DNA of 32,000 bases from Propionibacteriaceae bacterium (GCA_031256725.1 JAIRQE010000019.1:30001-62000); one strand, 5' to 3'; numbered from the stretch's first letter, positions 2,870-25,785 are shown. Made by a program: numbers and translations. Notes: a model not told the origin generated them from the letters alone.

Positions 2870-5356
2870 TCAGCCCAGGGTGATCTTGAGATGAACTTCG
2901 CGACCCTCAGGCCCAGTTTCGATCTGCGCATAGTTGCGCCGAGATCCTTGTGTTGGAGTGAAAGGGACACCATCAACGGTGATTGTCGACACACCTGTGG
3001 ACACATGGTGAGGGTTGAGCACCTCAATGAGATATGTACTCCCCCTCCATTGGCGTGTCACGGTGAATCCATCCCATGAACCTGGGATACAGGGATCAAT
3101 GATCAGATGATTGAGCCGTGGGCGGATTCCAAGAATGTACCGAGTCGCTGCGGTGTACATCCACCCCGCAGTACCCGTGAGCCAAGGATTCTGCGCCTGA
3201 CCATAGTATTCATGGTCGCGCCCGAAGATGAACTGAGTGTAGACAAAGGGTTCTGCGCCTCGTACTTCGATGGAGTCATTGTGGGTAATGGGGGCCATCG
3301 CCTGGTAATACTCAAAGGCGCGATCGCCGCGCCCCAGCATGGTTTCAGCAATGATGGGCCAGGCATTGGGATGGGAGAAAATGGCCCCATTTTCCTTGAC
3401 CCCAGGATAAACCCTTGTCACATAGCCAATAGTGTCGTCGACCTTGGTGTAGGAAGGCGAACACAAATGCAATCCATACTCGCTTGCAAGGTGTTCGTTG
3501 ACTGCATCCATGGAGGATAACCCCCGGGACTTACCAGCAACACCACTCATCACAGCCAGACCCATATGCTCTAGAAAGATTTTTCCTTCCTCGGATTCCC
3601 GAGAGCCGATCTTCACTCCATCACGGGTGAATCCCCGTAGGTACCACTGCCCATCCCAGAGTTCCCGATTAGCAGCTTCAGTTGCTTGGTCGATGATCTC
3701 ATTGAGACGGGCAACCAATCCCAGGTGCGACTGGAGGTCGATAAGCAGGTCCCTCAGGGTACGTGCTGCCCACACATGGAGGAAAGTCACCAAAGCCGTT
3801 TGCCCACCACCAAGGTTAAGACAGTCATTCCAATCTGCCCTGAGACCTTGGGCAATTCCATTGTCACCCACATGGGTCGTAGTGAACTCCAGCCCCCTCA
3901 TGAGGTGTTCCAGAACCGTCGCAACCCTGTGATCGGCGCTGGCATAAGAGCCGAGCACCTTTGCTCTTTCTTCTTCATTCAGATCCGTGTCAGCGAAAGG
4001 TACCACCTCATTCAGCAGCCCCACATCACCACTCTCAACAATGTAGTCCACAACAGAGACCACCAACCATAGATGATCATCCGAGCAGGCATCCTTCAAA
4101 CCGTGAACAAGATCTGTGGCTTTCCCTGGAACAACGGTAGGAAGCTTCACCCCCACGGGAATATCTTTTCGGTGATTTTCCGCGAAAAGCCCAGGCTCGA
4201 AAAGATGGAGGCCGTACCCTGGGGACATCTGGCCTCTGACAAGTTCCTGGATTCTCTGTTTCACCTTGTTAGGGTTGGTGTGTACGACACTGCCAATATC
4301 CTGGGCGGTGTCTCTATACCCCAAACCGACCCGGCCACCAACCTCCACAAAGGAGGCGAACCGACTCCAGACCACACAGGTTTCCGCTTGATAGAGGGTC
4401 CATGTGTTGATGAGAGTGTTCAGGGCCCCACTGGGGGTTTCGCAGAAGTAAACAGCCTTCTTCTTTTTCCAATACTCCGCTAGGGATACGATCGCCTGAT
4501 CAACTACACCAGGAGTTAAATACTTCTTCCTCATCGCTGTACCGACTTCGCGATTTCCGTACCCTAGAAGGTAGGTGAGCCGCAGTGTCTGGCCGGGTTC
4601 TAGAAGTAATGTGTGATGGAGGGCCCCGCAATGATTGCCTGTTGTTCCCTGGGTGTTTGAACAGGAACCTTTCTCAACAGCGATGGGGTTGGACTCGGTT
4701 CTATAGGAGCCAATGAAGGAGTCCCTCTTAGAGTCGAAGCTGGTTGGTTCCAGATCACTGGTGAAGTAATGGTAGGTCCATGGCTCATAGTAGAAGTCGT
4801 ACTCGATCACCGAATCGGCGTAATCCGAACCTGAGGCATAGAGCGACATTTGGAAGTTTTCGTTATCGATCTGTACCGAGTGATAGGAAAATTCCACGTA
4901 CCCAAATAGGGAGAGGTACCTTCGGTGATCGGTGGTATTTGTGACATGGACATCCCACAGTTCCACATCATCACCAATGGGTACGAAAACCCTTTGACTA
5001 GTGGAAATCCCTCGATAGTCTGATTCAAAGACCGAGTACGAAAGTCCATGACGAGTACGATAGGTCGCCTCACCTAGAGGCTTGCCAACCGGTTGCCAGG
5101 ACCCGGACCAATAGTCACCATTCTCGTCATCGCGCAGGTAGAGATAGTGACCAGGGCGATCCATGGGTACCCCATTTGGGCGGAACCGTGTCACCCTCCC
5201 CTGTTGGCTCGACTTATAGAAACTATAACCTCCTGCATTCTGGTTGATGACGGTACACCAGTTCTCCACACCGATGTAGTTGATCCACGAGTGTGGTACA
5301 TCCACACGATCAATGACATACTCATCGGCTGAGTCGTCAAAATACCCGTATTTCAT
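2870..5356 (-). CDS. GH94 family disaccharide phosphorylase, N,N'-diacetylchitobiose-phosphorylase-like clade (substrate not proven)
   Basis: 828 aa. GH94 hallmarks are MKYGYFDD N-terminus, AGGYSFY, GLRADWNDCLNLGGG (catalytic Asp motif), VKENGAIFSHPNAW and NPWLTGTAGW. It diverges from cellobiose phosphorylases where those have WNQYQCMVTFNMSRSAS / GRADWNDCLNLNCFS / YKENxGIFCHNN; here the equivalents are TWTLYQAETCVVWSRFAS / ...NLGGG / ...FSHPN. As far as I recall, these match the Vibrio ChbP-type branch. Confidence 0.85.
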   Translation of the reverse strand: MKYGYFDDSADEYVIDRVDVPHSWINYIGVENWCTVINQNAGGYSFYKSSQQGRVTRFRPNGVPMDRPGHYLYLRDDENGDYWSGSWQPVGKPLGEATYRTRHGLSYSVFESDYRGISTSQRVFVPIGDDVELWDVHVTNTTDHRRYLSLFGYVEFSYHSVQIDNENFQMSLYASGSDYADSVIEYDFYYEPWTYHYFTSDLEPTSFDSKRDSFIGSYRTESNPIAVEKGSCSNTQGTTGNHCGALHHTLLLEPGQTLRLTYLLGYGNREVGTAMRKKYLTPGVVDQAIVSLAEYWKKKKAVYFCETPSGALNTLINTWTLYQAETCVVWSRFASFVEVGGRVGLGYRDTAQDIGSVVHTNPNKVKQRIQELVRGQMSPGYGLHLFEPGLFAENHRKDIPVGVKLPTVVPGKATDLVHGLKDACSDDHLWLVVSVVDYIVESGDVGLLNEVVPFADTDLNEEERAKVLGSYASADHRVATVLEHLMRGLEFTTTHVGDNGIAQGLRADWNDCLNLGGGQTALVTFLHVWAARTLRDLLIDLQSHLGLVARLNEIIDQATEAANRELWDGQWYLRGFTRDGVKIGSRESEEGKIFLEHMGLAVMSGVAGKSRGLSSMDAVNEHLASEYGLHLCSPSYTKVDDTIGYVTRVYPGVKENGAIFSHPNAWPIIAETMLGRGDRAFEYYQAMAPITHNDSIEVRGAEPFVYTQFIFGRDHEYYGQAQNPWLTGTAGWMYTAATRYILGIRPRLNHLIIDPCIPGSWDGFTVTRQWRGSTYLIEVLNPHHVSTGVSTITVDGVPFTPTQGSRRNYAQIETGPEGREVHLKITLG

Positions 5357-7525
5357 TCAGGCTCCTGCATAGTCGTGAACCCAGTCGATGAGTTCCTGGG
5401 CGTGTACCTCGTCAGCGGCCTCAGCGATCATCCTCAGAATAGGCTCAGTACCAGAAAAGCGCAGCAGTACCCAGGAACCATTGTCCAAGGTGATCTTGAA
5501 TCCGTCGTAGGTGTCGATTGTGACCACGGGGATCCCTGCAATAGTAGTGGGCTGGGATTCGGTAATCCTGCGTGGGATCTCGACCTTCATATCGGGGGTC
5601 GCAGGGATTCCTGTCTCAATCTGTGTGGCACGCCCCGTGATGGCGAAGACCTCATCAAGCAGGACACTGAGTTTTTTTCCTGTCACAGCCAACATCTCAC
5701 ATACCAGCGCACAGGCGAAGATACCGTCCTTACCGAGGATCCATCCACGGATCGTGAGACCACCTGAGGATTCTCCCCCAAGGACAGCATTAATCTGGGC
5801 CATTCCTGCGGTGATGTACTTGAACCCCACAGGTACCTCCACATGAGGTTCCCCGAAATGATCAGCGAGCCGATCAATAAGGTGTGTCGTGGAGAGGTTG
5901 CGAACGACTCCACCTTGTTCTCCCCTCATCTCATGGAGGTACCAATAGATCAAGACAAGCAACTCATTGGTGGAAACATAACGACCAGTTTCATCGACGA
6001 TTCCGATACGGTCGGAGTCACCATCCGTGGCCAGCCCAAGGTCATAGGTACCCTGATTCTTGACCATGTCGATCAGTGTTGTCAGTGCAGCGGCATCCGG
6101 GGCTGGTGACTTCCCACCAAACAAAGGATTATGGGGGGCATGGATGAACTCCGCGCGTACCCGTGCATCTGAGAGGACCAGACCCAAGGTGAGTTGGCTT
6201 GTACCATACATGGGATCTATCAGTACACGCAGTGGTTTCGCAGCCCTCATCTTGGGGATGTCGATCTGTGTTTCGATAGCCTCCACATAGGCATTCGTCA
6301 GATCAATCTCGGTGATGAGTCCTGAATTCATAGCAGTCCCATAGTCGATGGTGACGACATCAGCGTTCCTCAAAGAGTTGGCTTCATCTTGGAAGGCATC
6401 GGTTTCATCATTGAGAGGAAGAGACCCGTCGGCTCTGAAAACCTTCAACCCATTCCACTGGGGTGGATTATGGGAGGCAGTGAAAACCAAAGAATACTGA
6501 GACCCAGTGTGGGGGGCCGCAAAGGTCACCAAAGGAGTGGGGACATCACCACGGAGTACCCGGGTTAGGATATTGTTCCCCGCAAAGACTTCAGCAGCTA
6601 CTCGTACCGATTCTGCTGAAAGGAAGCGACGATCTCCGCCAATCACGACACCTTTGGATTCTGTACCTGTGCGAGTGACTTGATTGGCAATGGCTTGACA
6701 TAGGCGTCGCACATTGTGGAGGGTGAAACCCTCACCAATCTTGGCTCTCCAGCCTCCTGTACCAAAGAAGATCTCGTGGGATTCCAGGGCGTGACTGGGC
6801 TCAAAGAGACGTTTGAGGACGATGTCTTCAGCCCTCTTCAACTCTTCATCAGTGTTAATACCTTGGACTTCATCAACATCAAGGATGGCATAGGAGGCCA
6901 CTGGGTTCCCCTCGGCAATCAGACGTTCCGCCAGTTCTGTAAGTCGGTGCTCTCCAATGGCAGCCATCTCATCCAATCTCGGAATGAGTATCGAACTATC
7001 GATCACGTAGGCCCCAACATTGACCTCAACGATTGCAGAGGTTTGAGTAGACAGATCGGATGCTTCAACGATCTCGACGATGCGGGCCTGGTCATCTCGA
7101 AGAATCCGACCATAGTCTCCAGGATCATCAACCATAGCGGTGAGAAGGGAAAACTGTGACTCTTTGAGATGATGTTTCCAGATCAGCCCTCGAAGAGAGG
7201 AAGCCTTCACCATAGGTGTGTCGGCATAGGCAACCAGGACATCACCCTCAAACCCGTCGAGTTGGAACCTGGCACACCTGACGGCATCACCTGTACCAGC
7301 TTGAACATTCTGACGTACATAGGTCCAGGAATCCCCCAACAACTTAGGGATGGAATCATCGTGGGCATCCACAACAATCACCACATCAGATTGGGGGATC
7401 ACTGCTGTGACACTAGCGAGGGACTGCTCCACGACCGTCGAGTTCCCCAACTGGCGCATCAAAAGATTTCTTGTCTGATCACAGCTACCTGCGGCGAGTA
7501 CTACTGCTTTCATTGAGCGGGCCAT
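5357..7525 (-). CDS. Fusion protein: GlmU-type sugar-1-phosphate nucleotidyltransferase domain (aa ~1-245) plus alpha-D-phosphohexomutase (aa ~255-722)
   Basis: N-terminal domain: KAVVLAAG, QAGTGDAV, VLVAYADTP, VDDPGDYGRI, VEVNVGAYV, GEHRLTE and EVQGINT align with the GlmU pyrophosphorylase domain; there is no LbH acetyltransferase domain. C-terminal domain: TASHNPPQWNGLK (catalytic Ser), DGDSDR (Mg), GGESSGG (sugar loop), RFSGTEPILR (phosphate loop). Its stop TGA directly abuts the GH94 ATG, and its ATG overlaps the ROK kinase stop (TAATG). Confidence 0.85.
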   Translation of the reverse strand: MARSMKAVVLAAGSCDQTRNLLMRQLGNSTVVEQSLASVTAVIPQSDVVIVVDAHDDSIPKLLGDSWTYVRQNVQAGTGDAVRCARFQLDGFEGDVLVAYADTPMVKASSLRGLIWKHHLKESQFSLLTAMVDDPGDYGRILRDDQARIVEIVEASDLSTQTSAIVEVNVGAYVIDSSILIPRLDEMAAIGEHRLTELAERLIAEGNPVASYAILDVDEVQGINTDEELKRAEDIVLKRLFEPSHALESHEIFFGTGGWRAKIGEGFTLHNVRRLCQAIANQVTRTGTESKGVVIGGDRRFLSAESVRVAAEVFAGNNILTRVLRGDVPTPLVTFAAPHTGSQYSLVFTASHNPPQWNGLKVFRADGSLPLNDETDAFQDEANSLRNADVVTIDYGTAMNSGLITEIDLTNAYVEAIETQIDIPKMRAAKPLRVLIDPMYGTSQLTLGLVLSDARVRAEFIHAPHNPLFGGKSPAPDAAALTTLIDMVKNQGTYDLGLATDGDSDRIGIVDETGRYVSTNELLVLIYWYLHEMRGEQGGVVRNLSTTHLIDRLADHFGEPHVEVPVGFKYITAGMAQINAVLGGESSGGLTIRGWILGKDGIFACALVCEMLAVTGKKLSVLLDEVFAITGRATQIETGIPATPDMKVEIPRRITESQPTTIAGIPVVTIDTYDGFKITLDNGSWVLLRFSGTEPILRMIAEAADEVHAQELIDWVHDYAGA

Positions 7526-8424
7526 TATTCCACTTCCATTCCGCCTCGACCGATCAGAGCCGCACCGATTGCAGCTGCTCGGTAATTCGGATCCAGGACA
7601 GAGATCTCTTCAGCTATTTCAGCATAATCAGGAAATGTCGTATTCTGGCTGCGTGTCACCAGGAAATTTTGAACAGCTGGAAGGATCCAGGGTGCTGCGT
7701 GGATGACTCCCCCACCAAGCACAATGTAATCCGAGGCATAGACCACGGCGACCAGGGCTGCAACACGAGCTATAACCCGTACTGCTTGATCATGGGCAGC
7801 TATACCAGCTGGAGAAGAATCCTTGTCGAGGGTGGCCCATTGAAGTTCAAGCATCTCCATCCTAGGTGCCAGATAGCGACCCCCCACTACGGTTTCGATA
7901 CACCCGCGTTGGCCACAGCGGCAAGGATCCCCATTCGGATTCAGCACAACGTGACCGATTTCACCTGCACGGTTATTTCTCCCTCGAAGCAGTCGTCCAC
8001 CATCCAGGGTTGCTGAGGCCACACCTGTACCAAAGTTCACGTATGTCACCGAGGTTGACTTGAGCAGGTTACCCACAGCGACAACGGTGGCTTTCACATC
8101 ATTATCAAGGTACACGGGTACAGAAAACTCATCAGCAATCAGATCACGCAAGAGGGTTTGATTGATCCCCAGATTCACCGCGTTTGCGATGGTACCAGTC
8201 TCGCGATTGACAACCCCGGGAATACCGATACCCACTGAGGTGAAGTCTGTGAGTTCTTGTCCGGTTTGGGAAGCGAGGTGACCAGCGACCTCAAGGAGTC
8301 CGGCGACTACACCCTGTTCACCTCGACGCGTGGCAGTGGAGTACTCAGCGATCACGCGATCCTCCTGGGAGAGTACGATACCCTCAGTACTCGTTGAACC
8401 AATATCAATTCCTAGGCTTAACAT
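7525..8424 (-). CDS. ROK-family sugar kinase (no DNA-binding domain)
   Basis: 299 aa. It has the LGIDIGSTS ATP-binding N-terminus, the GEIGH motif and the CRCGQRGCIE zinc motif typical of ROK kinases (glucokinase/GlcNAc kinase type). Confidence 0.85.
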   Translation of the reverse strand: MLSLGIDIGSTSTEGIVLSQEDRVIAEYSTATRRGEQGVVAGLLEVAGHLASQTGQELTDFTSVGIGIPGVVNRETGTIANAVNLGINQTLLRDLIADEFSVPVYLDNDVKATVVAVGNLLKSTSVTYVNFGTGVASATLDGGRLLRGRNNRAGEIGHVVLNPNGDPCRCGQRGCIETVVGGRYLAPRMEMLELQWATLDKDSSPAGIAAHDQAVRVIARVAALVAVVYASDYIVLGGGVIHAAPWILPAVQNFLVTRSQNTTFPDYAEIAEEISVLDPNYRAAAIGAALIGRGGMEVE

Positions 8425-8443: not shown

Positions 8444-9295
8444 TTAGCCTTTGACTGCACCGGCAACCAAACCGGAGGTCAAACGGCCTTGAACAAGCAG
8501 GAAGAAAATGATCACAGGGATGGCGACCAGTGTCGAAGAGGCCATCACCTGCCCCCAATCAATCTCTCTCGCTTGGGATGCTTGGATAAAGGTACGCAAC
8601 CACAAGGGCAGGGTGCGCATCTGTTCTGCAGGAAGGATCACCAAGGCGATGGTGAACTCATTCCAAGCTTGGAGGAAGGCATAGACCCCGGAGGCCACCA
8701 ATCCTGGGGCAAGCAAGGGCAAGGTTATTCTGAAGAAGGCACCCGCCGAGGAACAACCATCCACCTGTGCGGACTCCTCCAGATCGGCAGGTACACCAGC
8801 AACGAATCCCCTGAGCATCCAGATGGTGAAGGGGACAACGGCGGCGATGTAGAGAATCGAGACACCCAGGACAGAGTTCAACAAACCGGTGGTGGACATC
8901 ATCTTGTACTGGGCAATAAATAAGCCCTCAGCGGGGAGCATCTGGATGAACAGGATCGCCAACACGAAGGATTTGCGTCCCCTGAACTTGAAGCGTGAGA
9001 TCGCCAAAGCCGCGAGGAATGCGAAAAGGATGGCGAAAAAGACTGCAATGAGGGTCACCTGGAGTGATATGGTCAAGGCCCGCAGGAAGGTACCTCCACT
9101 GAGAACACTTGCGTAATTGGCGAAGCTGCCACCCCAGGGGAAGAAGCGAGGTGTAGTCGAGCTCAAAACCACATTGGGGAGCAGTGAACTGGAGAGCATC
9201 CAGTAAACGGGGAAGACCCAGATCAGGGCAATGACGATCGCAACGAGGGATAGGACTAGGCGCAGGGGCTTGAAATGCTGACGTATGGTGATCAT
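8444..9295 (-). CDS. Carbohydrate ABC transporter permease (MalG/CUT1 type)
   Basis: 283 aa, six predicted TM segments, and an EAA loop (LEESAQVDGCSSAGAFFRITLPLLAPG). It overlaps the upstream permease gene by 4 nt. Confidence 0.9.
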   Translation of the reverse strand: MITIRQHFKPLRLVLSLVAIVIALIWVFPVYWMLSSSLLPNVVLSSTTPRFFPWGGSFANYASVLSGGTFLRALTISLQVTLIAVFFAILFAFLAALAISRFKFRGRKSFVLAILFIQMLPAEGLFIAQYKMMSTTGLLNSVLGVSILYIAAVVPFTIWMLRGFVAGVPADLEESAQVDGCSSAGAFFRITLPLLAPGLVASGVYAFLQAWNEFTIALVILPAEQMRTLPLWLRTFIQASQAREIDWGQVMASSTLVAIPVIIFFLLVQGRLTSGLVAGAVKG

Positions 9296-10284
9296 GAATC
9301 CTCCTTGACTAGGCGCATCACATAGGCAATCGAGATCACAATGGTGATCAGAAGAACGAAGATGGACAGAGCCGACGCCATGGCGAAGTCTCCAGATCCC
9401 ACACCAAGTCGGTAGATATAGGTACCCAATAGGTCTGAGTTGAGAGGCATCTGTGCGTCTTGAAGCATTCGGATCTGGGTGAAAACTCGAAGATCCCAGA
9501 TGATTTGAAGCAGACCCACGATCATGAGTACTGGGCGGATCATAGGAACAATAATGGTGGTGAACTTCCGTGAGGCTGAGGCCCCATCAAGGCTCGCGGC
9601 CTCCATGATTTCCGGGGAAACCTGGGTGAGTCCGGCATAGATGGAGAAGGCCACAAAGGGTACTGACATCCACACCACGATCAGTGTTGCCACGAAATAC
9701 AGACCTAGAGATGTACCCAGCCAGTTGAAACTCGTGAAGTTGAAACCCATCGCGGTCAGGGTGTGGTTGATCACTCCTCGACGCCAATCGAAGAGCCAGA
9801 TCCACACTGTGACTGCGGCGACCACAGGCATGGCCCATGCGAGAAGCAGGGAGATCTGAAGTGTGAGTTTGACCCCCTTATTCACGACATTCATGAGTAC
9901 TGCTACTGCCGTACCAATGATCATGGTGAGAATGGCGTTAACAGCACAGAAGATGAGGGATCGTGCAACAACACCCCAGGTTGATGGGTTCGTGAAGATG
10001 GAGAGGTAGTTGCTCAAACCCACAAACTCTGGTGGTGCACCGAATTGCTGGGCGAGGCCGTACCTCATCATTGATGTATAGATCTGCCACACGAGGGGGT
10101 ACCCGATGGCAATGAGAAGCATGATGACCGCTGGGAGGAGAAGGATGTACGGAGCGCGAGGATTTCTGCGGCGACGTTTGGGAGCCTGTACCTCAAGTGG
10201 ATAGAGAATATCTTGGGTGACCATGTCTACCAGGCCCGAGTCTTGAGGAGTGTCAGGTCGATTAGTGGTTGTCTCAGTCATCAT
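9292..10284 (-). CDS. Carbohydrate ABC transporter permease (MalF/CUT1 type)
   Basis: 330 aa, polytopic, with an EAA-type loop (MEAASLDGASASRKFTTIIVPMIRP). AGGAGG lies 6 nt upstream of the ATG at 10284. Confidence 0.9.
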   Translation of the reverse strand: MMTETTTNRPDTPQDSGLVDMVTQDILYPLEVQAPKRRRRNPRAPYILLLPAVIMLLIAIGYPLVWQIYTSMMRYGLAQQFGAPPEFVGLSNYLSIFTNPSTWGVVARSLIFCAVNAILTMIIGTAVAVLMNVVNKGVKLTLQISLLLAWAMPVVAAVTVWIWLFDWRRGVINHTLTAMGFNFTSFNWLGTSLGLYFVATLIVVWMSVPFVAFSIYAGLTQVSPEIMEAASLDGASASRKFTTIIVPMIRPVLMIVGLLQIIWDLRVFTQIRMLQDAQMPLNSDLLGTYIYRLGVGSGDFAMASALSIFVLLITIVISIAYVMRLVKEDS

Positions 10285-10398: not shown

Positions 10399-11748
10399 TT
10401 ACTTCTGGTTCAGCATTGGCGTGATGATAGCGTCGTATTCCTTAGTCAAGGAATCGAGGTCAGCCCCATCAGCGACCTTCTGGAAGAACTCCTCCAACTT
10501 GTTGGATGCCTCCACTGCGGCCCACCCTGGGGCAGCTGGGGTCAACTTGGAGTTTGATGCGGACTCAATGAGAGCCTTAGCGAAGATGTCATCACCGAGG
10601 GCTGACATATTGGTGGAATTGGCTGGGCCTAGACCATTCTTACCAAGCATGGTTTGGTACTCGCTAGAGAAGATGATCTCCAAGAGTTGGCGAGATCCTT
10701 CCTGCTTGGTTGACTTCGCTGAGATACCGATGTTGGATCCACCAGCGAAGACTGGAGCTGGCTTACCATCATTACCTGGAAGAGCGAAGACGCCGAAGGT
10801 GTCGTCATTCCATTCGCGAACATCCTTGCCTTCATCATTCTTGGTTAGATCACCAATAGACCAGTGAGCCCATCCGGGAGCCATGATGGTTGCCGCTGCC
10901 AAGGAGGTATCGGTCACAGTACCAGCGTCATCCTTAGCGGAATCCGTGTCATTGATGTACAGCCATGGGCTCTGATCACGTGCAGTGGTTGGGGCCATGG
11001 ATGCCTTGGCCTGAATCTCTTGGAGTTGAGCTAGGCCCTTGATGGTGTTGGGGTCTGACAGTGTTGAAACCCACTGACCATCCTCTTGCTTAGCGAGGTC
11101 TCCACCATTGGCGAAGATCCACGAGATACCATTGCGCCAGTCCTGACCGCCGATGAAGAATCCAGAGAAATCATTGATTGTCTTGGGGTTCTGGTCGGTG
11201 ATCTTCACAACGGCTGCATTGAACTCGTCAAGGGTTGCCGGAGGTGCTTTCACCCCTGCGGCTTCCCACACATCCTTGCGGTAGAACATGTATCGTGAAC
11301 CAAAGTAGTACGGCAGAGTGTAGTTCTTCCCATCAACTTTGCCAACCTCAACAAAAGACTGGAGGAGGTTCGATCCCCCGAGTTTGGCGTACATGTCTGA
11401 GATGTCAGCGAAAGCCCCAACATTAGTGAAGGTTGGAGACTGTGTGTTACCAATCTCTGTCACATCGGGAGTGTTGTTGGCATCCGGTAGCATCGCAGTG
11501 AGCTTGGTAATGATGTCACCCCAGGTCTGCTCCTCAATCGTCAGGGTTCCACCATTAACACTCTTGTACTGTTCAACAAGGTAGTCCCGAAGCTCTTGGG
11601 GAGTGTCTCCACCAATTACCCAAAATGTAATATCCTGGGCGCCCTCGGGCGTGTTGTTATCTGTCGGCTGCGGCTGGGCACAACCTGTGAGTACCAGGGC
11701 TGATGCTATAACGAGCACCAATCCAGCAATCTTTCCTCTCATTATCAT
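10399..11748 (-). CDS. ABC transporter extracellular solute-binding lipoprotein (family 1, oligosaccharide type)
   Basis: 449 aa. It has a signal peptide with lipobox LTGC, and SBP family-1 features. An SD (AGGAAAGG) lies upstream. Confidence 0.9.
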   Translation of the reverse strand: MIMRGKIAGLVLVIASALVLTGCAQPQPTDNNTPEGAQDITFWVIGGDTPQELRDYLVEQYKSVNGGTLTIEEQTWGDIITKLTAMLPDANNTPDVTEIGNTQSPTFTNVGAFADISDMYAKLGGSNLLQSFVEVGKVDGKNYTLPYYFGSRYMFYRKDVWEAAGVKAPPATLDEFNAAVVKITDQNPKTINDFSGFFIGGQDWRNGISWIFANGGDLAKQEDGQWVSTLSDPNTIKGLAQLQEIQAKASMAPTTARDQSPWLYINDTDSAKDDAGTVTDTSLAAATIMAPGWAHWSIGDLTKNDEGKDVREWNDDTFGVFALPGNDGKPAPVFAGGSNIGISAKSTKQEGSRQLLEIIFSSEYQTMLGKNGLGPANSTNMSALGDDIFAKALIESASNSKLTPAAPGWAAVEASNKLEEFFQKVADGADLDSLTKEYDAIITPMLNQK

Positions 11749-11774: not shown

Positions 11775-12908
11775 TTAAGACACTCCCAAAGTGGCTCTTA
11801 GTACGAGTGAAACGGCCCCCTTCAGGACAGCTTCATGACCAAGGCTTGAGGGCTTCACCGAAAGTTCACGGCGAAACTCTGAGTATGTGCGTTCAATAAT
11901 TAGGCTTTGACAAGCATTGATAAAGGTCTCGTCGATGAGGTCGAGTGGACCTCCGACAATGATGTGTTGAAGATCAAGGGCAGCTACGATGGGGGCAAGG
12001 GCCATACCGAGACGGCGGCCAGCCTCAGCCATGATCGTGCCTGAATGGGCCTCGTCTGATTCGAGACGCAAACGAAGACTGGGTACAGAAATCCATGTTT
12101 CCAAACACCCCTGTTTTCCACAGGAACACTCCAAACCCTTATGCTCGATAACAAGGTGGCCGATTTCGCCTGCTGCACCACCAGAACCCAGAACAAGGGA
12201 TCCCTTCAGGAGTACACCAGCACCCACGCCGCGAGAGATCTGCACTCGTACCAAATCTGGGGAGGCTTCTGCGAAGACTTTCTCGGCCATGACGGCTGCA
12301 TTCGCATCATTTTGTACCACGGCGGGGAACCCGAAACGATCAGTGACGATCTCTTGGAGGTTGACCTCACGCCAGTTGAGATTTGGGGCTGCGAGGACTG
12401 TACCAGCGTCATCGACGATGCCTGGGGAACCTATACCGATGCCCAGGATTCGATGGGTGGCGAGGGGGATGGTTTTCTGGATGAGTTCCAGAACCACGTC
12501 GACTGCCTCCTCAGCTACTCGCCCTTCCAGGGCTAAGGAGGATTCGGCCCTCTTCTCCCCTCTCAGGGAGTAGACACCTGCGCGCAAAATATCTTGGGCC
12601 GACAGATCAAGTGCGATGATGTCACATGAGTCCTCACGTACGGCAAGGCTTGTGGCAGGCTTTCCTGGGCGTACCCCAGAGGTTACTCCGGTTTCCTCAA
12701 CAAATCCTTCATTGATCAACTCAGCAACCAGGTCGGAGATGGTGACCTTCGTCAGCCCTGTCTGGCGAGCAAGATCCGCCCGAGTGAGGTACGGAGTGTC
12801 GAATAGTGACTGGAGAACAAGGGAAAGATTGAATCGTCGCCCATCTTGGGGACGAAGGATTCTCACCCCATCACGGGGATGGATTCCAAGGAGCTGCCCT
12901 GTTGTCAT
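11775..12908 (-). CDS. ROK-family transcriptional regulator (N-terminal wHTH plus ROK sensor domain)
   Basis: 377 aa. It has NLSLVLQSL...LTRADLARQTGLTKVTISDLVAELINEGFVEE (wHTH), GEIGH and CSCGKQGCLE. It lies 26 nt upstream of the SBP gene on the same strand. Confidence 0.85.
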   Translation of the reverse strand: MTTGQLLGIHPRDGVRILRPQDGRRFNLSLVLQSLFDTPYLTRADLARQTGLTKVTISDLVAELINEGFVEETGVTSGVRPGKPATSLAVREDSCDIIALDLSAQDILRAGVYSLRGEKRAESSLALEGRVAEEAVDVVLELIQKTIPLATHRILGIGIGSPGIVDDAGTVLAAPNLNWREVNLQEIVTDRFGFPAVVQNDANAAVMAEKVFAEASPDLVRVQISRGVGAGVLLKGSLVLGSGGAAGEIGHLVIEHKGLECSCGKQGCLETWISVPSLRLRLESDEAHSGTIMAEAGRRLGMALAPIVAALDLQHIIVGGPLDLIDETFINACQSLIIERTYSEFRRELSVKPSSLGHEAVLKGAVSLVLRATLGVS

Positions 12909-24308: not shown

Positions 24309-25785
24309 GGCTCCTCTCAGATTAGGTGGGGGTGGGAGGGGACACGCTGAGTGGGGTGGTGGTGGAAGGGGGTCGTGTCCTTGAAGAATTGATGGTGTCA
24401 ACCACGTCAATTACTTGAAGGACCCGACCTGTGTTCCATTCTACTGATTCTTATGGTGTTACCGCTGATAGTGAGTGTTCCCGGTGTGATCGACTTCTTG
24501 ATTTGAATGGGTATCATGTGATTCGGGTTGAGGGGGATGGGAGTGGTCATCTGATTGTTGAGATTGAATCAAGTCGTTCTTCGCCTGGGTGTCCTGGTTG
24601 TGGGGTGGTCACCCTCAGTCATGGTCGTAGGGAACACCGGTTGGTTGATTGCCCGTGTTTTGGTCGACCAGTGGAACTGGTGTGGCGGAAACACACATGG
24701 AAATGTATGGAGGACACATGTCCTGTGAGACTCATCACTGAACAAGATGACAATATTGCTCAACCGCGGGGACTGTTATCCACTTGGGCTATGTGGTGGG
24801 CTGCACGTCAACTGCGATGGGAGAACGCATCGGTTGCTGGGCTTGCCCGCCAACTAGGAACCGCATGGGCAACAGTGAACACAGCAATCATGGGATTACT
24901 AGTTGGTCTTGACCGTGATCCGTCTCGTTTCGCTGGGGTGGAAGTCCTGGGTGTGGACGAACACCTGTGGCATCACATGAACCCTGCTCGTCGGGGGCCA
25001 CGCGAGTTCACTGGCATGGTTGATCTGACGCGCGACAAGAATGGACGCACTCACGCTCGGCTCCTGGATCTTGTTCCAGGCAGATCAGGGAAAGCCTATT
25101 CAACCTGGTTACAAGCCCATGACCCCGAATTCATCAAGGGTGTGAAAATCGCTGCACTCGACCCATTTCGAGGCTATAAGAACGCGATCGATGATCATCT
25201 TGACGACGCTCGCGCGGTCCTGGATGCATTCCACGTCACCAAACTCGGGTATCAAGCCCTCGACCAAGTACGCTGCCGAGTCCAACACACCACCCTCGGG
25301 CACCGTGGCCGCAAGAAAGACCCCCTCTACAAGATCAGGCGAGTGTTAGTCACCGGGATCGAACGCCTCTCTGAGCGTCAATGGGAACGCCTCATTCAGG
25401 GTCTCGAACACGGAGACCCTGACAGTGAAGTGACCATCGCATGGCAATGCGCCGGGCAACTACGTGACGCCTACCATAACAAAAACTTGAACGCCGGATT
25501 AAGGCAAGCACTCCGCCTCGTGAGAATCCTCCCGACCTGCCCCATCCCCGAGATCGCCCGACTCGGGCGAACCCTGAAACAATGGAAACAAGAATACTTG
25601 GCCTACTGGACCACCAACCGCACCACCAACGGCGGAACCGAAGCCATCAACAACCTCATCGAACTCCACCGACGCATCGCCAGAGGCTTCACCAACCCCC
25701 ACCACTACCGACTCAGAATGCTCCTCATCGGCGGAGCCTTCAACCACCCACAACTCAACTACCCCCACCGCAAATGAGAAGAGCC
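24309..25785 (+). mobile_element. Complete ISL3-family insertion sequence (1477 bp)
   Basis: IRL is GGCTCCTCTCAGATTAGGTGGGGGTGG (24309..24335). The reverse complement of IRR is GGCTCTTCTCATTTGCGGTGGGGGTAG (25759..25785). They are identical at 21/27 positions and have the canonical ISL3 GGCTCTT-type tips. There is a single transposase ORF ending inside IRR, flanked by a perfect 8-bp TSD. Confidence 0.9.
24431..25777 (+). CDS. ISL3-family transposase
   Basis: 448 aa with a GTG start. It has an N-terminal zinc-finger region (CSRC...CPGCG...), LLDLNGYHVIRVE, a DDE-domain region (GVDEHLW..., AALDPFRGYKNAI..., TNGGTEAINNLIE) and the typical ISL3 layout. Confidence 0.9.
   Translation: MFHSTDSYGVTADSECSRCDRLLDLNGYHVIRVEGDGSGHLIVEIESSRSSPGCPGCGVVTLSHGRREHRLVDCPCFGRPVELVWRKHTWKCMEDTCPVRLITEQDDNIAQPRGLLSTWAMWWAARQLRWENASVAGLARQLGTAWATVNTAIMGLLVGLDRDPSRFAGVEVLGVDEHLWHHMNPARRGPREFTGMVDLTRDKNGRTHARLLDLVPGRSGKAYSTWLQAHDPEFIKGVKIAALDPFRGYKNAIDDHLDDARAVLDAFHVTKLGYQALDQVRCRVQHTTLGHRGRKKDPLYKIRRVLVTGIERLSERQWERLIQGLEHGDPDSEVTIAWQCAGQLRDAYHNKNLNAGLRQALRLVRILPTCPIPEIARLGRTLKQWKQEYLAYWTTNRTTNGGTEAINNLIELHRRIARGFTNPHHYRLRMLLIGGAFNHPQLNYPHRK

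Follow-up and report, generated by a model that had tools for sequence, protein, structure and literature searches.

A GlmU-like domain fused to a phosphohexomutase in predicted chitobiose phosphorylase operons: a candidate sensor acting in cis

The window analyzed here is a 32,000-nt stretch of DNA from a Propionibacteriaceae bacterium (GCA_031256725.1, JAIRQE010000019.1:30001-62000), in which a single gene encodes a domain homologous to the uridylyltransferase half of GlmU (N-domain) joined to a phosphohexomutase (mutase module), located between the genes of a ROK-family kinase and a GH94 phosphorylase. This raises the question of why a mutase in such surroundings would carry a domain known from nucleotide-sugar synthesis, and whether that domain serves as a catalyst, as a sensor or not at all. 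Similarity and gene context firmly support the assignment of the fusion as a protein handling N-acetylglucosamine 1-phosphate (GlcNAc-1-P) in a chitobiose phosphorylase operon, a substrate that we infer from the neighboring genes, and likewise firmly support a GlmU-derived predicted pocket for a uridine-GlcNAc ligand in the N-domain. For the actinobacterial fusions, a role of this domain as a sensor or valve acting in cis appears slightly likelier than that of an efficient uridylyltransferase, and we would put its probability at roughly 0.42.

The open reading frame (ORF) that the original prediction had placed at 5357-7525 exists, with an ATG start and a product of 722 aa, but it lies on the minus strand, and the plus-strand translation of the same interval was riddled with stop codons. 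All motifs on which the proposed two-part architecture had been based were found in the translation, both those of the N-terminal part (LAAGSCDQTRNLLMRQLGN, QAGTGDAV, YADTP, DDPGDYGRI, EVNVGAYV, GEHRLTE and EVQGINT) and those of the mutase (TASHNPPQWNGLK, DGDSDR, GGESSGG and RFSGTEPILR), and profile-based domain assignment corroborated the architecture itself. In Pfam, NTP_transferase matched aa 29–212 with 26.6 bits against a cut-off of 21.2, and PGM_PMM I-IV covered aa 253–714 (E-values 1e-28, 7e-21, 5e-25 and 4e-8). The NCBIfam models of GlmU aligned with aa 7–241 over their positions 2–241 (E 7.6e-43) and gave no match for the acetyltransferase half beyond position ~241; as Pfam Hexapep was not found either, the predicted absence of the left-handed beta-helix held true. 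The N-domain was far more similar to GlmU (about E 1e-43) than to GalU and RmlA (just E 1e-4 to 1e-6), although the fusion scored far below all GlmU equivalog cut-offs in NCBIfam. In the PDB, its nearest solved relative was GlmU from Streptococcus pneumoniae (4aaw, E 1.6e-30), followed by the Mycobacterium tuberculosis (1e-19) and Escherichia coli (2e-16) enzymes. An AlphaFold2 model of the full protein, built from an alignment of 59 homologues, reached a mean confidence (pLDDT) of 89.3 and a predicted template modeling score (pTM) of 0.87, with low confidence confined to the linker (aa 243–248); this pTM suggests that the two modules are held in a fixed arrangement. When searched against known folds, the full model returned mutases alone and nothing for the N-domain, because mutases dominate the alignment.

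The N-domains of 116 actinobacterial, 117 Chloroflexota and 25 Bacillota full-length fusions (258 in total) were compared to S. pneumoniae GlmU, whose numbering is used here for ligand residues (N227 of that enzyme corresponds to N224 of the window protein). Q72, G77, T78 and D102 were invariant in the 258 fusions save for one D102N in Bacillota, N169 and N227 were invariant in Actinomycetota and almost so in the other two phyla, and G139, R140 and E154 were near-invariant throughout, with position 154 occupied by Glu in 97 and by Asp in 19 of the 116 actinobacterial sequences. The residues invariant within the actinobacterial family were Q72, G77, T78, Y100, D102, G139, R140, N169, G171, E192, R194 and N224, and more than 20 invariant N-domain positions were found at ligand-contacting sites. 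The window protein retains all ligands of uridine, GlcNAc and Mg2+ known from GlmU (S. pneumoniae/E. coli Q72/76, G77/81, T78/82, D102/105, E154, N169 and N227). The likeness to GlmU extends along the whole pyrophosphorylase domain and includes identical residues for uridine (Q72, G77), GlcNAc (T78, Y100, E154, N169) and ribose/Mg (D102, N224). In GlmU, these residues bind uracil, ribose, Mg2+ and GlcNAc (PMC9105790), and a natural replacement of N169 weakens the Staphylococcus aureus enzyme (bioRxiv 10.64898/2026.06.23.733835).

The signature loop, in contrast to that of GlmU, is strongly altered. The original prediction had described a nucleoside triphosphate (NTP)-binding loop without the conserved Lys as an oddity of this gene; the feature is real, but it is not peculiar to this gene and extends to the whole actinobacterial family, as all 116 fusions aligned have a gap in place of the canonical Arg and a Leu in place of the Lys. 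The pyrophosphorylase fingerprint is L-x2-G-x-G-T-x-M-x4-P-K (PMC10087520), where the window sequence reads LAAGSCDQTRNLLMRQL. Compared to this fingerprint, two extra residues precede the TR, the PKV of GlmU is deleted, and an Arg has appeared at the GEYY position. The actinobacterial loop has a constant length and the consensus LAAG[H/A/Q]Dxx[T/S]RxLL, from which the window departs at S14-C15, where the family has H-D. R19 was present in all 117 actinobacterial-family sequences having a residue there, PKV was missing from 120 of 120 family sequences, and the new Arg, R194, stands at the position of GlmU Y197, with GEHRLTE replacing GEYYITD. The Chloroflexota loop is hypervariable, spanning 2 to 36 residues with Trp in place of Lys in 85 of 117 sequences, and 39 of the 117 had no Arg or Lys in the loop and no R197 or other compensating Arg while still keeping the nucleotide-sugar ligands. 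Across the lineages, the product-binding pocket therefore appears to be conserved and the triphosphate-handling part to have been lost.

Two aspects of this pattern would favor sensing: what seems to be lost is exactly the triphosphate/pyrophosphate clamp, with the product contacts kept, and clampless Chloroflexota members nevertheless keep the domain. An earlier caution that the N-domain might be regulatory rather than catalytic was judged right. We tentatively propose that the domain is a pseudoenzyme sensing UDP-GlcNAc, or the balance between UTP and GlcNAc-1-P, and allosterically gating the mutase in cis; with similar reserve, it may be regarded as derived from an active uridylyltransferase, the canonical form of which persists in the Oscillospirales fusions. 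The N-module would serve chiefly to bind UDP-GlcNAc (or GlcNAc-1-P/UTP), with residual catalysis at most, and would act as a valve on the fused mutase, releasing GlcNAc-1-P for catabolism only once enough cell-wall precursor is available. GlcNAc-1-P is an obligatory intermediate between both GlmU reactions, and an unregulated GlcNAc-phosphate mutase could for that reason drain cell-wall synthesis; in combination with NagA and GlmM, it could also set up a cycle wasting acetyl-CoA. If the sensor reading is true, the valve would decide whether chitin-derived GlcNAc-1-P is burnt or saved for the cell wall, the futile cycle (GlmU acetylation, mutase, NagA, GlmM) would be prevented and acetyl-CoA spared. 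A bolder variant would have the domain perform uridylyl transfer without pyrophosphate as the leaving group.

The same fold has moved from catalyst to ligand-sensing regulator before. The large subunit of plant ADP-glucose pyrophosphorylase (AGPase) has lost the loop Lys, and a T-to-K exchange restores some activity (PMC2529307), and GMPPA, a paralogue without catalytic activity, binds GDP-mannose and exerts feedback regulation on GMPPB (PMC11228364; PMC9168903). Human GMPPA and the AGPase large subunit share with the present N-domain the fold, the lost or altered signature-loop residues and the kept nucleotide-sugar pocket, but they regulate a homologous pyrophosphorylase in trans as part of hetero-oligomers, whereas the partner proposed here is an unrelated mutase in cis.

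The best-surviving alternative is that the fusion is a true bifunctional enzyme, in which the N-domain still acts as a GlcNAc-1-P uridylyltransferase with a rebuilt phosphate clamp, R19 and R194 standing in for the Arg and Lys of the canonical one; we regard this as a serious contender, though with less than an even chance. Part of the phosphorylase product would be tapped into the cell-wall precursor pool, bypassing NagA, GlmM and re-acetylation by GlmU, and a reversible mutase together with the ROK kinase could bring free GlcNAc to UDP-GlcNAc in a eukaryote-like manner. Several observations weigh against the sensor reading. The Bacillota loop is canonical (Arg in 24 and Lys in 25 of 25 sequences), and because these sister fusions keep the full GxGxR...PK, the fusion probably began as a true bifunctional enzyme. 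Decay is not seen in the actinobacterial loop, whose entropy is 1.34 bits vs 1.14 bits for the rest of the domain. Arg at the Y197 position was found in 154 of 229 Lys-less fusions vs none of 29 Lys-keeping ones, and in 15 of 150 cluster representatives vs none of 99 with the canonical signature, although these counts are not phylogenetically independent; the gain of R194 looks like a relocated catalytic charge, which would fit retained catalysis equally well. A built-in sensor is furthermore not required for the pathway, as stand-alone mutases of the same subfamily exist and the mutase genes of the Chitinispirillum pathway are separate (PMC4814513), and we infer the specificity of the mutase for GlcNAc phosphates from gene context only.

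Retained catalysis is further consistent with the invariance of all uridine, GlcNAc and Mg ligands, N169 included, with an invariant (T/S)R in the loop that resembles the ancestral GTR plus two extra residues, with a constraint on the loop that matches the rest of the domain, with the gain of R194 in Lys-less lineages only, and with a purifying selection on the N-domain that equals that on the mutase. On the other hand, a catalytic role is attributed to the Arg and Lys of the loop in enzymes of this class (GlmU, RmlA), and free GlcNAc-1-P could already be a substrate for the host's own GlmU, which counts against the need for a second enzyme. The Chloroflexota relatives keep the domain without a positive charge in the site, which would mean that a function shared by the family tolerates loss of the clamp, and the AGPase large subunit was inactivated by loss of clamp residues (PMC2529307).

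The substrate was assigned from the GH94 neighbor, which by similarity is clearly a chitobiose phosphorylase: it matched the Vibrio proteolyticus enzyme (1v7v) with 949 bits over residues 1–800, compared to 494 bits for its best cellobiose phosphorylase match, and it retains the RADWND catalytic motif. Because of this closer relationship, the product reaching the fusion would be alpha-GlcNAc-1-P and not glucose-1-P. The accepted pathway comprises chitobiose phosphorylase, GlcNAc-1-P mutase, GlcNAc kinase, NagA and NagB (PMC4814513), and the fusion appears to occupy the position of the mutase. Judging from gene content, the ATP-binding cassette (ABC) system of the operon would import chitobiose, whose phosphorolysis by GH94 would yield GlcNAc and alpha-GlcNAc-1-P; the ROK kinase would convert the free GlcNAc into GlcNAc-6-P and the C-terminal module would shift the phosphate of GlcNAc-1-P to position 6, such that both halves of the disaccharide reach catabolism. 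The mutase most probably runs from GlcNAc-1-P to GlcNAc-6-P, since GH94 delivers GlcNAc-1-P ready-made, and the assembly line from sugar-6-P via sugar-1-P to an NDP-sugar that had originally been envisaged does not agree with such a supply; some of the product may nevertheless be channelled into a nucleotide sugar.

A glucose-phosphate system, composed of a cellobiose-type GH94, a phosphoglucomutase and a UDP-glucose-type enzyme or sensor, is improbable. It would be in line with the many cellobiose phosphorylases in GH94, the cellulolytic nature of several host genera (Cellulomonas, Cellulosimicrobium), the annotation of the nearest solved mutases as phosphoglucomutase/phosphomannomutase (PGM/PMM), and the best PDB relative of the solute-binding protein, CbpB, which was however matched too weakly (73 bits) for a ligand to be assigned. 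Against it stand the much closer match of the GH94 protein to chitobiose phosphorylase, the far higher similarity of the N-domain to GlmU than to GalU and RmlA, the invariance of the GlcNAc-contacting residues of GlmU, and an Oscillospiraceae contig (L084) encoding GH94, the fusion, NagB and NagA in this order.

Even less probable is a reading of the N-domain as an evolutionary relic, or as an appendage of purely structural use (for solubility or oligomerization), with no ligand role. Its signature residues are lost, and it diverges faster than the mutase between actinobacterial families (46–52% vs 63–66% identity), but the full-length domain is kept in three phyla, more than 20 of its invariant positions lie at ligand-contacting sites, and its ratio of nonsynonymous to synonymous substitution rates (dN/dS) lies far under 1, near that of the mutase. 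The ratios were obtained from exact tblastn coordinates within Propionibacteriaceae, relying on the closest pairs (N-domain 0.07–0.24, mutase 0.11–0.24); medians over 250 pairs were 0.29 and 0.225, respectively, and all these values are rough because the GC content at third codon positions (GC3) reaches 0.97. The high-GC Cellulomonadaceae were left out, as a GC3 near 0.97 compresses dS and gave values above 1. Purifying selection on the N-domain is about as strong as on the mutase, and judged from these comparisons the domain is functional rather than a relic. An assembly or gene-calling artefact joining two genes, which the origin of the window from a metagenome-assembled genome might suggest, was rejected, as the ORF is continuous in complete genomes/isolates (Sanguibacter CP049862, Cellulosimicrobium NZ_CP183974) and occurs in hundreds of independent contigs.

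The fusion is spread over three phyla and hundreds of species. The best 120 relatives of the window protein (58–76% identity) all had the two-part architecture and nearly all comprised 700–785 aa, a few being 5'-truncated calls. In contigs representing one genome per species, 420 loci encode relatives, and the best 80 of these matched the near-whole query (at least residues 3–688); their hosts were Propionibacteriaceae, Propionicimonas, Cellulosimicrobium, Cellulomonas, Oerskovia, Demequina, Sanguibacter, Actinomyces and Actinotalea as well as one Limnocylindrales, and some are complete genomes. Searches with the N-domain only revealed a large Chloroflexota lineage (Caldilineaceae and Anaerolineae) and a Bacillota lineage (Oscillospirales-type, ~718 aa), the nearest relatives of the latter being far commoner stand-alone mutases of 465 aa with 66–74% identity over the mutase part. 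One such stand-alone mutase from Clostridia (L085 5875-8398, sharing ~72% identity with the mutase half of the Bacillota fusion) has a GHMP (galactokinase-like) kinase gene ahead of it and capsule genes behind. The window belongs to a markedly lower-GC lineage, the GC3 of its fusion gene being 0.55 compared to 0.71–0.97 in 26 relatives (L002-L038), and many of the nearest relatives are metagenome bins with isolate names resembling insect-gut (termite) bins.

In Actinomycetota, the gene is tightly linked to GH94. The next gene downstream, on the same strand, was GH94 in 74 of the 77 related loci of actinobacterial type for which 600 nt or more of downstream sequence was available; of 73 related loci, 25 had a ROK kinase gene directly ahead of the fusion, and the ABC importer and ROK regulator are kept upstream in Propionibacteriaceae-type loci. 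The three exceptions to the GH94 linkage include a pair from Propionicimonas (L023 5549-10157; L026), in which the fusion follows two phosphofructokinase genes and which may represent a paralogue with another role. Other Bacillota contigs than the Oscillospiraceae one described above have either a ROK gene and then the fusion beside an APH-kinase/NTP-transferase pair, or a binding protein, permeases and the fusion. At L083 11818-13705, an APH-fold kinase and a small NTP_transferase adjoin an Oscillospirales-type fusion, a pair that resembles the AmgK/MurU-like salvage pair of anomeric sugar kinase and uridylyltransferase. The Chloroflexota loci showed two orders, the fusion followed by APH/choline-kinase-type and GHMP kinases (L086 10278-12728), or a binding protein, permeases, the fusion and, overlapping its 3' end, the gene of a NAGPA-family (PF09992) phosphodiester glycosidase (L087 10136-11725); GH94 was missing from both of these loci. 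The Bacillota and Chloroflexota contexts again appear to involve GlcNAc or hexosamine-1-phosphate chemistry.

The mutase module is, by its loops, a catalytically intact four-domain phosphohexomutase: all four loops, noted as intact in the earlier reading of the sequence, were invariant among the 59 aligned homologues. The closest solved structures, 1tuo, 1wqa and 9du5, share ~28% identity with it (E 1e-55), and the model superposed on them with TM-scores of 0.87–0.91 (normalized to the target), the highest being for 1tuo. The C-terminal part was most similar to archaeal-type GlmM and PGM/PMM models in NCBIfam, albeit well below every equivalog cut-off, and an identity as GlmM was rejected at 273 bits vs a cut-off of 439 (TIGR03990) and 150 bits vs 447.55 (TIGR01455). 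We know of no diagnostic residues for the specificity of GlcNAc-1-P mutases. As both the fingerprint and the beta-helix are absent and the scores fall short of the GlmM cut-offs, the fusion should be named neither GlmU nor GlmM.

The genes from the ROK regulator through GH94 lie on the same strand with near-zero spacers (Table 1), and both genes flanking the fusion are present where the original prediction had seen them. The stop codon of the ROK kinase overlaps the start of the fusion (TAATG, 7523-7527), and the ATG of GH94 follows immediately on the TGA of the fusion (TGAATG, 5356-5359). These coupled junctions and the tight packing point to a single transcription unit with coupled translation. 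Scans for promoters and terminators at the ends of the operon yielded no candidates above shuffled background. The regulator had its top NCBIfam matches to Mlc and NagC, under the cut-offs, and for the specificity of the ROK kinase every NCBIfam match was likewise below cut-off. Relative to structure 1v7v, the GH94 protein has an insertion of ~19 residues, LNEEERAKVLGSYASADHR, at aa ~459–477.

Table 1. Predicted genes of the operon and parts of the fusion protein, in window coordinates.
Feature	Position (nt)	Strand	Residues of fusion	Basis and remarks
ROK-family regulator, N-terminal helix-turn-helix (HTH), NagC/Mlc-like	11775..12908	minus		Pfam ROK and HTH
Solute-binding protein of ABC sugar importer	10399-11748	minus		SBP_bac_1/8
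Two ABC permeases	9292-10284, 8444-9295	minus		BPD_transp_1
ROK-family sugar kinase, presumed GlcNAc kinase	7525..8424	minus		Pfam ROK, E 1.2e-41
Fusion gene	5357..7525	minus	722 aa	ORF and translation; ATG start; GlmU-type N-domain, short linker, four-domain phosphohexomutase
N-domain	6800..7525	minus	1-242	homologue of GlmU uridylyltransferase half; no left-handed beta-helix after it
Variant signature loop, LAAGSCDQTRNLL	7460..7498	minus	10-22	replaces GlmU LAAGKGTRMxSxLPK
Phosphohexomutase module	5360..6772	minus	252-722	PGM_PMM I-IV; all four catalytic loops
Phosphoserine loop TASHNP	6464-6481	minus	349-354	S351, H352, N353 invariant
Metal loop DGDSDR	6008-6025	minus	501-506	D501, D503, D505, R506 invariant
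Sugar loop GGESSGG	5759-5779	minus	583-589	invariant
Phosphate loop RFSGTEP	5441-5461	minus	689-695	R689-P695 invariant
GH94 N,N'-diacetylchitobiose phosphorylase (by similarity)	2870..5356	minus		Pfam GH94 domains (catalytic, supersandwich), E 1.8e-149 and 3e-77

When compared to known systems, the fusion differs from GlmU in having a phosphohexomutase in place of the beta-helix acetyltransferase/trimerization domain. The operon resembles the chb-type operons of Vibrio and the Chitinispirillum pathway in combining an importer, a GH94 chitobiose phosphorylase, a kinase and a phosphohexomutase, but the Chitinispirillum mutase has its own gene with no fused domain mentioned, whereas the fusion carries a GlmU-like domain of 245 aa (PMC4814513). 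The Thermus/archaeal PGM/PMM enzymes (1tuo, 1wqa, 9du5) share the four domains and loops of the C-module but are stand-alone proteins with different or unassigned substrates. In Vibrio chb-type operons the mutase is likewise a separate gene, a comparison made here by description only. Provided that the N-domain is active, the fusion would be similar to eukaryotic AGM1 and UAP1, which lead from GlcNAc-6-P via GlcNAc-1-P to UDP-GlcNAc without GlcN phosphates. UAP1, NagU from S. aureus (described in a 2026 preprint) and AmgK/MurU are, however, unrelated or distant, UAP1 and NagU being eukaryote-type proteins, and in no case is there a fused mutase or a link to a phosphorylase.

Generic nucleotidyltransferase-mutase fusions are covered by KEGG K16881, 'mannose-1-phosphate guanylyltransferase / phosphomannomutase', which refers to mannose and GDP; in contrast, the present N-domain is of a specifically GlmU-like kind, and its linkage is to chitobiose phosphorylase. 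In the literature, K16881 turned up solely as a label in metagenomic lists. The GlmU N-domain, the phosphohexomutases and the GH94 pathway are already known as separate parts, but a full-text literature search found no study of a GlmU-like/mutase fusion and the curated Pfam and NCBIfam models include none for the combined architecture. Nor did we find a description of the near-obligate pairing with GH94 chitobiose phosphorylase in Actinomycetota, or of the graded series of loops across phyla. The original prediction had allowed for a common and already characterized family; the architecture is indeed common, which lowers the surprise, yet no characterized member was found.

To our knowledge, bacterial UDP-GlcNAc is usually thought to be made only via GlmS, GlmM and GlmU, with GlcNAc recycled only after deacetylation. 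The fusion, widespread and placed right where GlcNAc-1-P would leave the chitobiose phosphorylase, may mark an undescribed control point at which the breakdown of chitin meets the supply of cell-wall precursors. A catalytic N-domain would provide a bacterial short-cut akin to the eukaryotic route, while under the sensor reading the canonical, rebuilt and degenerate loops would form a series in which an enzyme turns into a cis-regulatory pseudoenzyme. The fusion may also be of use for enzymatic production of UDP-GlcNAc or GlcNAc phosphates from chitin.

For annotation, hundreds of genomes are affected in which the protein is labelled just 'NTP transferase domain-containing protein' or is misnamed. 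The window protein is 100% identical to a public entry (P0001, 'NTP transferase domain-containing protein [Propionibacteriaceae bacterium]'), and the Chloroflexota fusions P0426 and P0482 are named 'glucosamine-1-phosphate N-acetyltransferase' despite having no acetyltransferase domain, probably an annotation error carried over from GlmU. Elsewhere in the window, an ISL3-family transposase gene (24431-25777, plus strand; DDE_Tnp_ISL3, E 4e-48) was found, flanked by an ABC transporter cluster and a radical-SAM/cdsA/pyrH/rpsB block.

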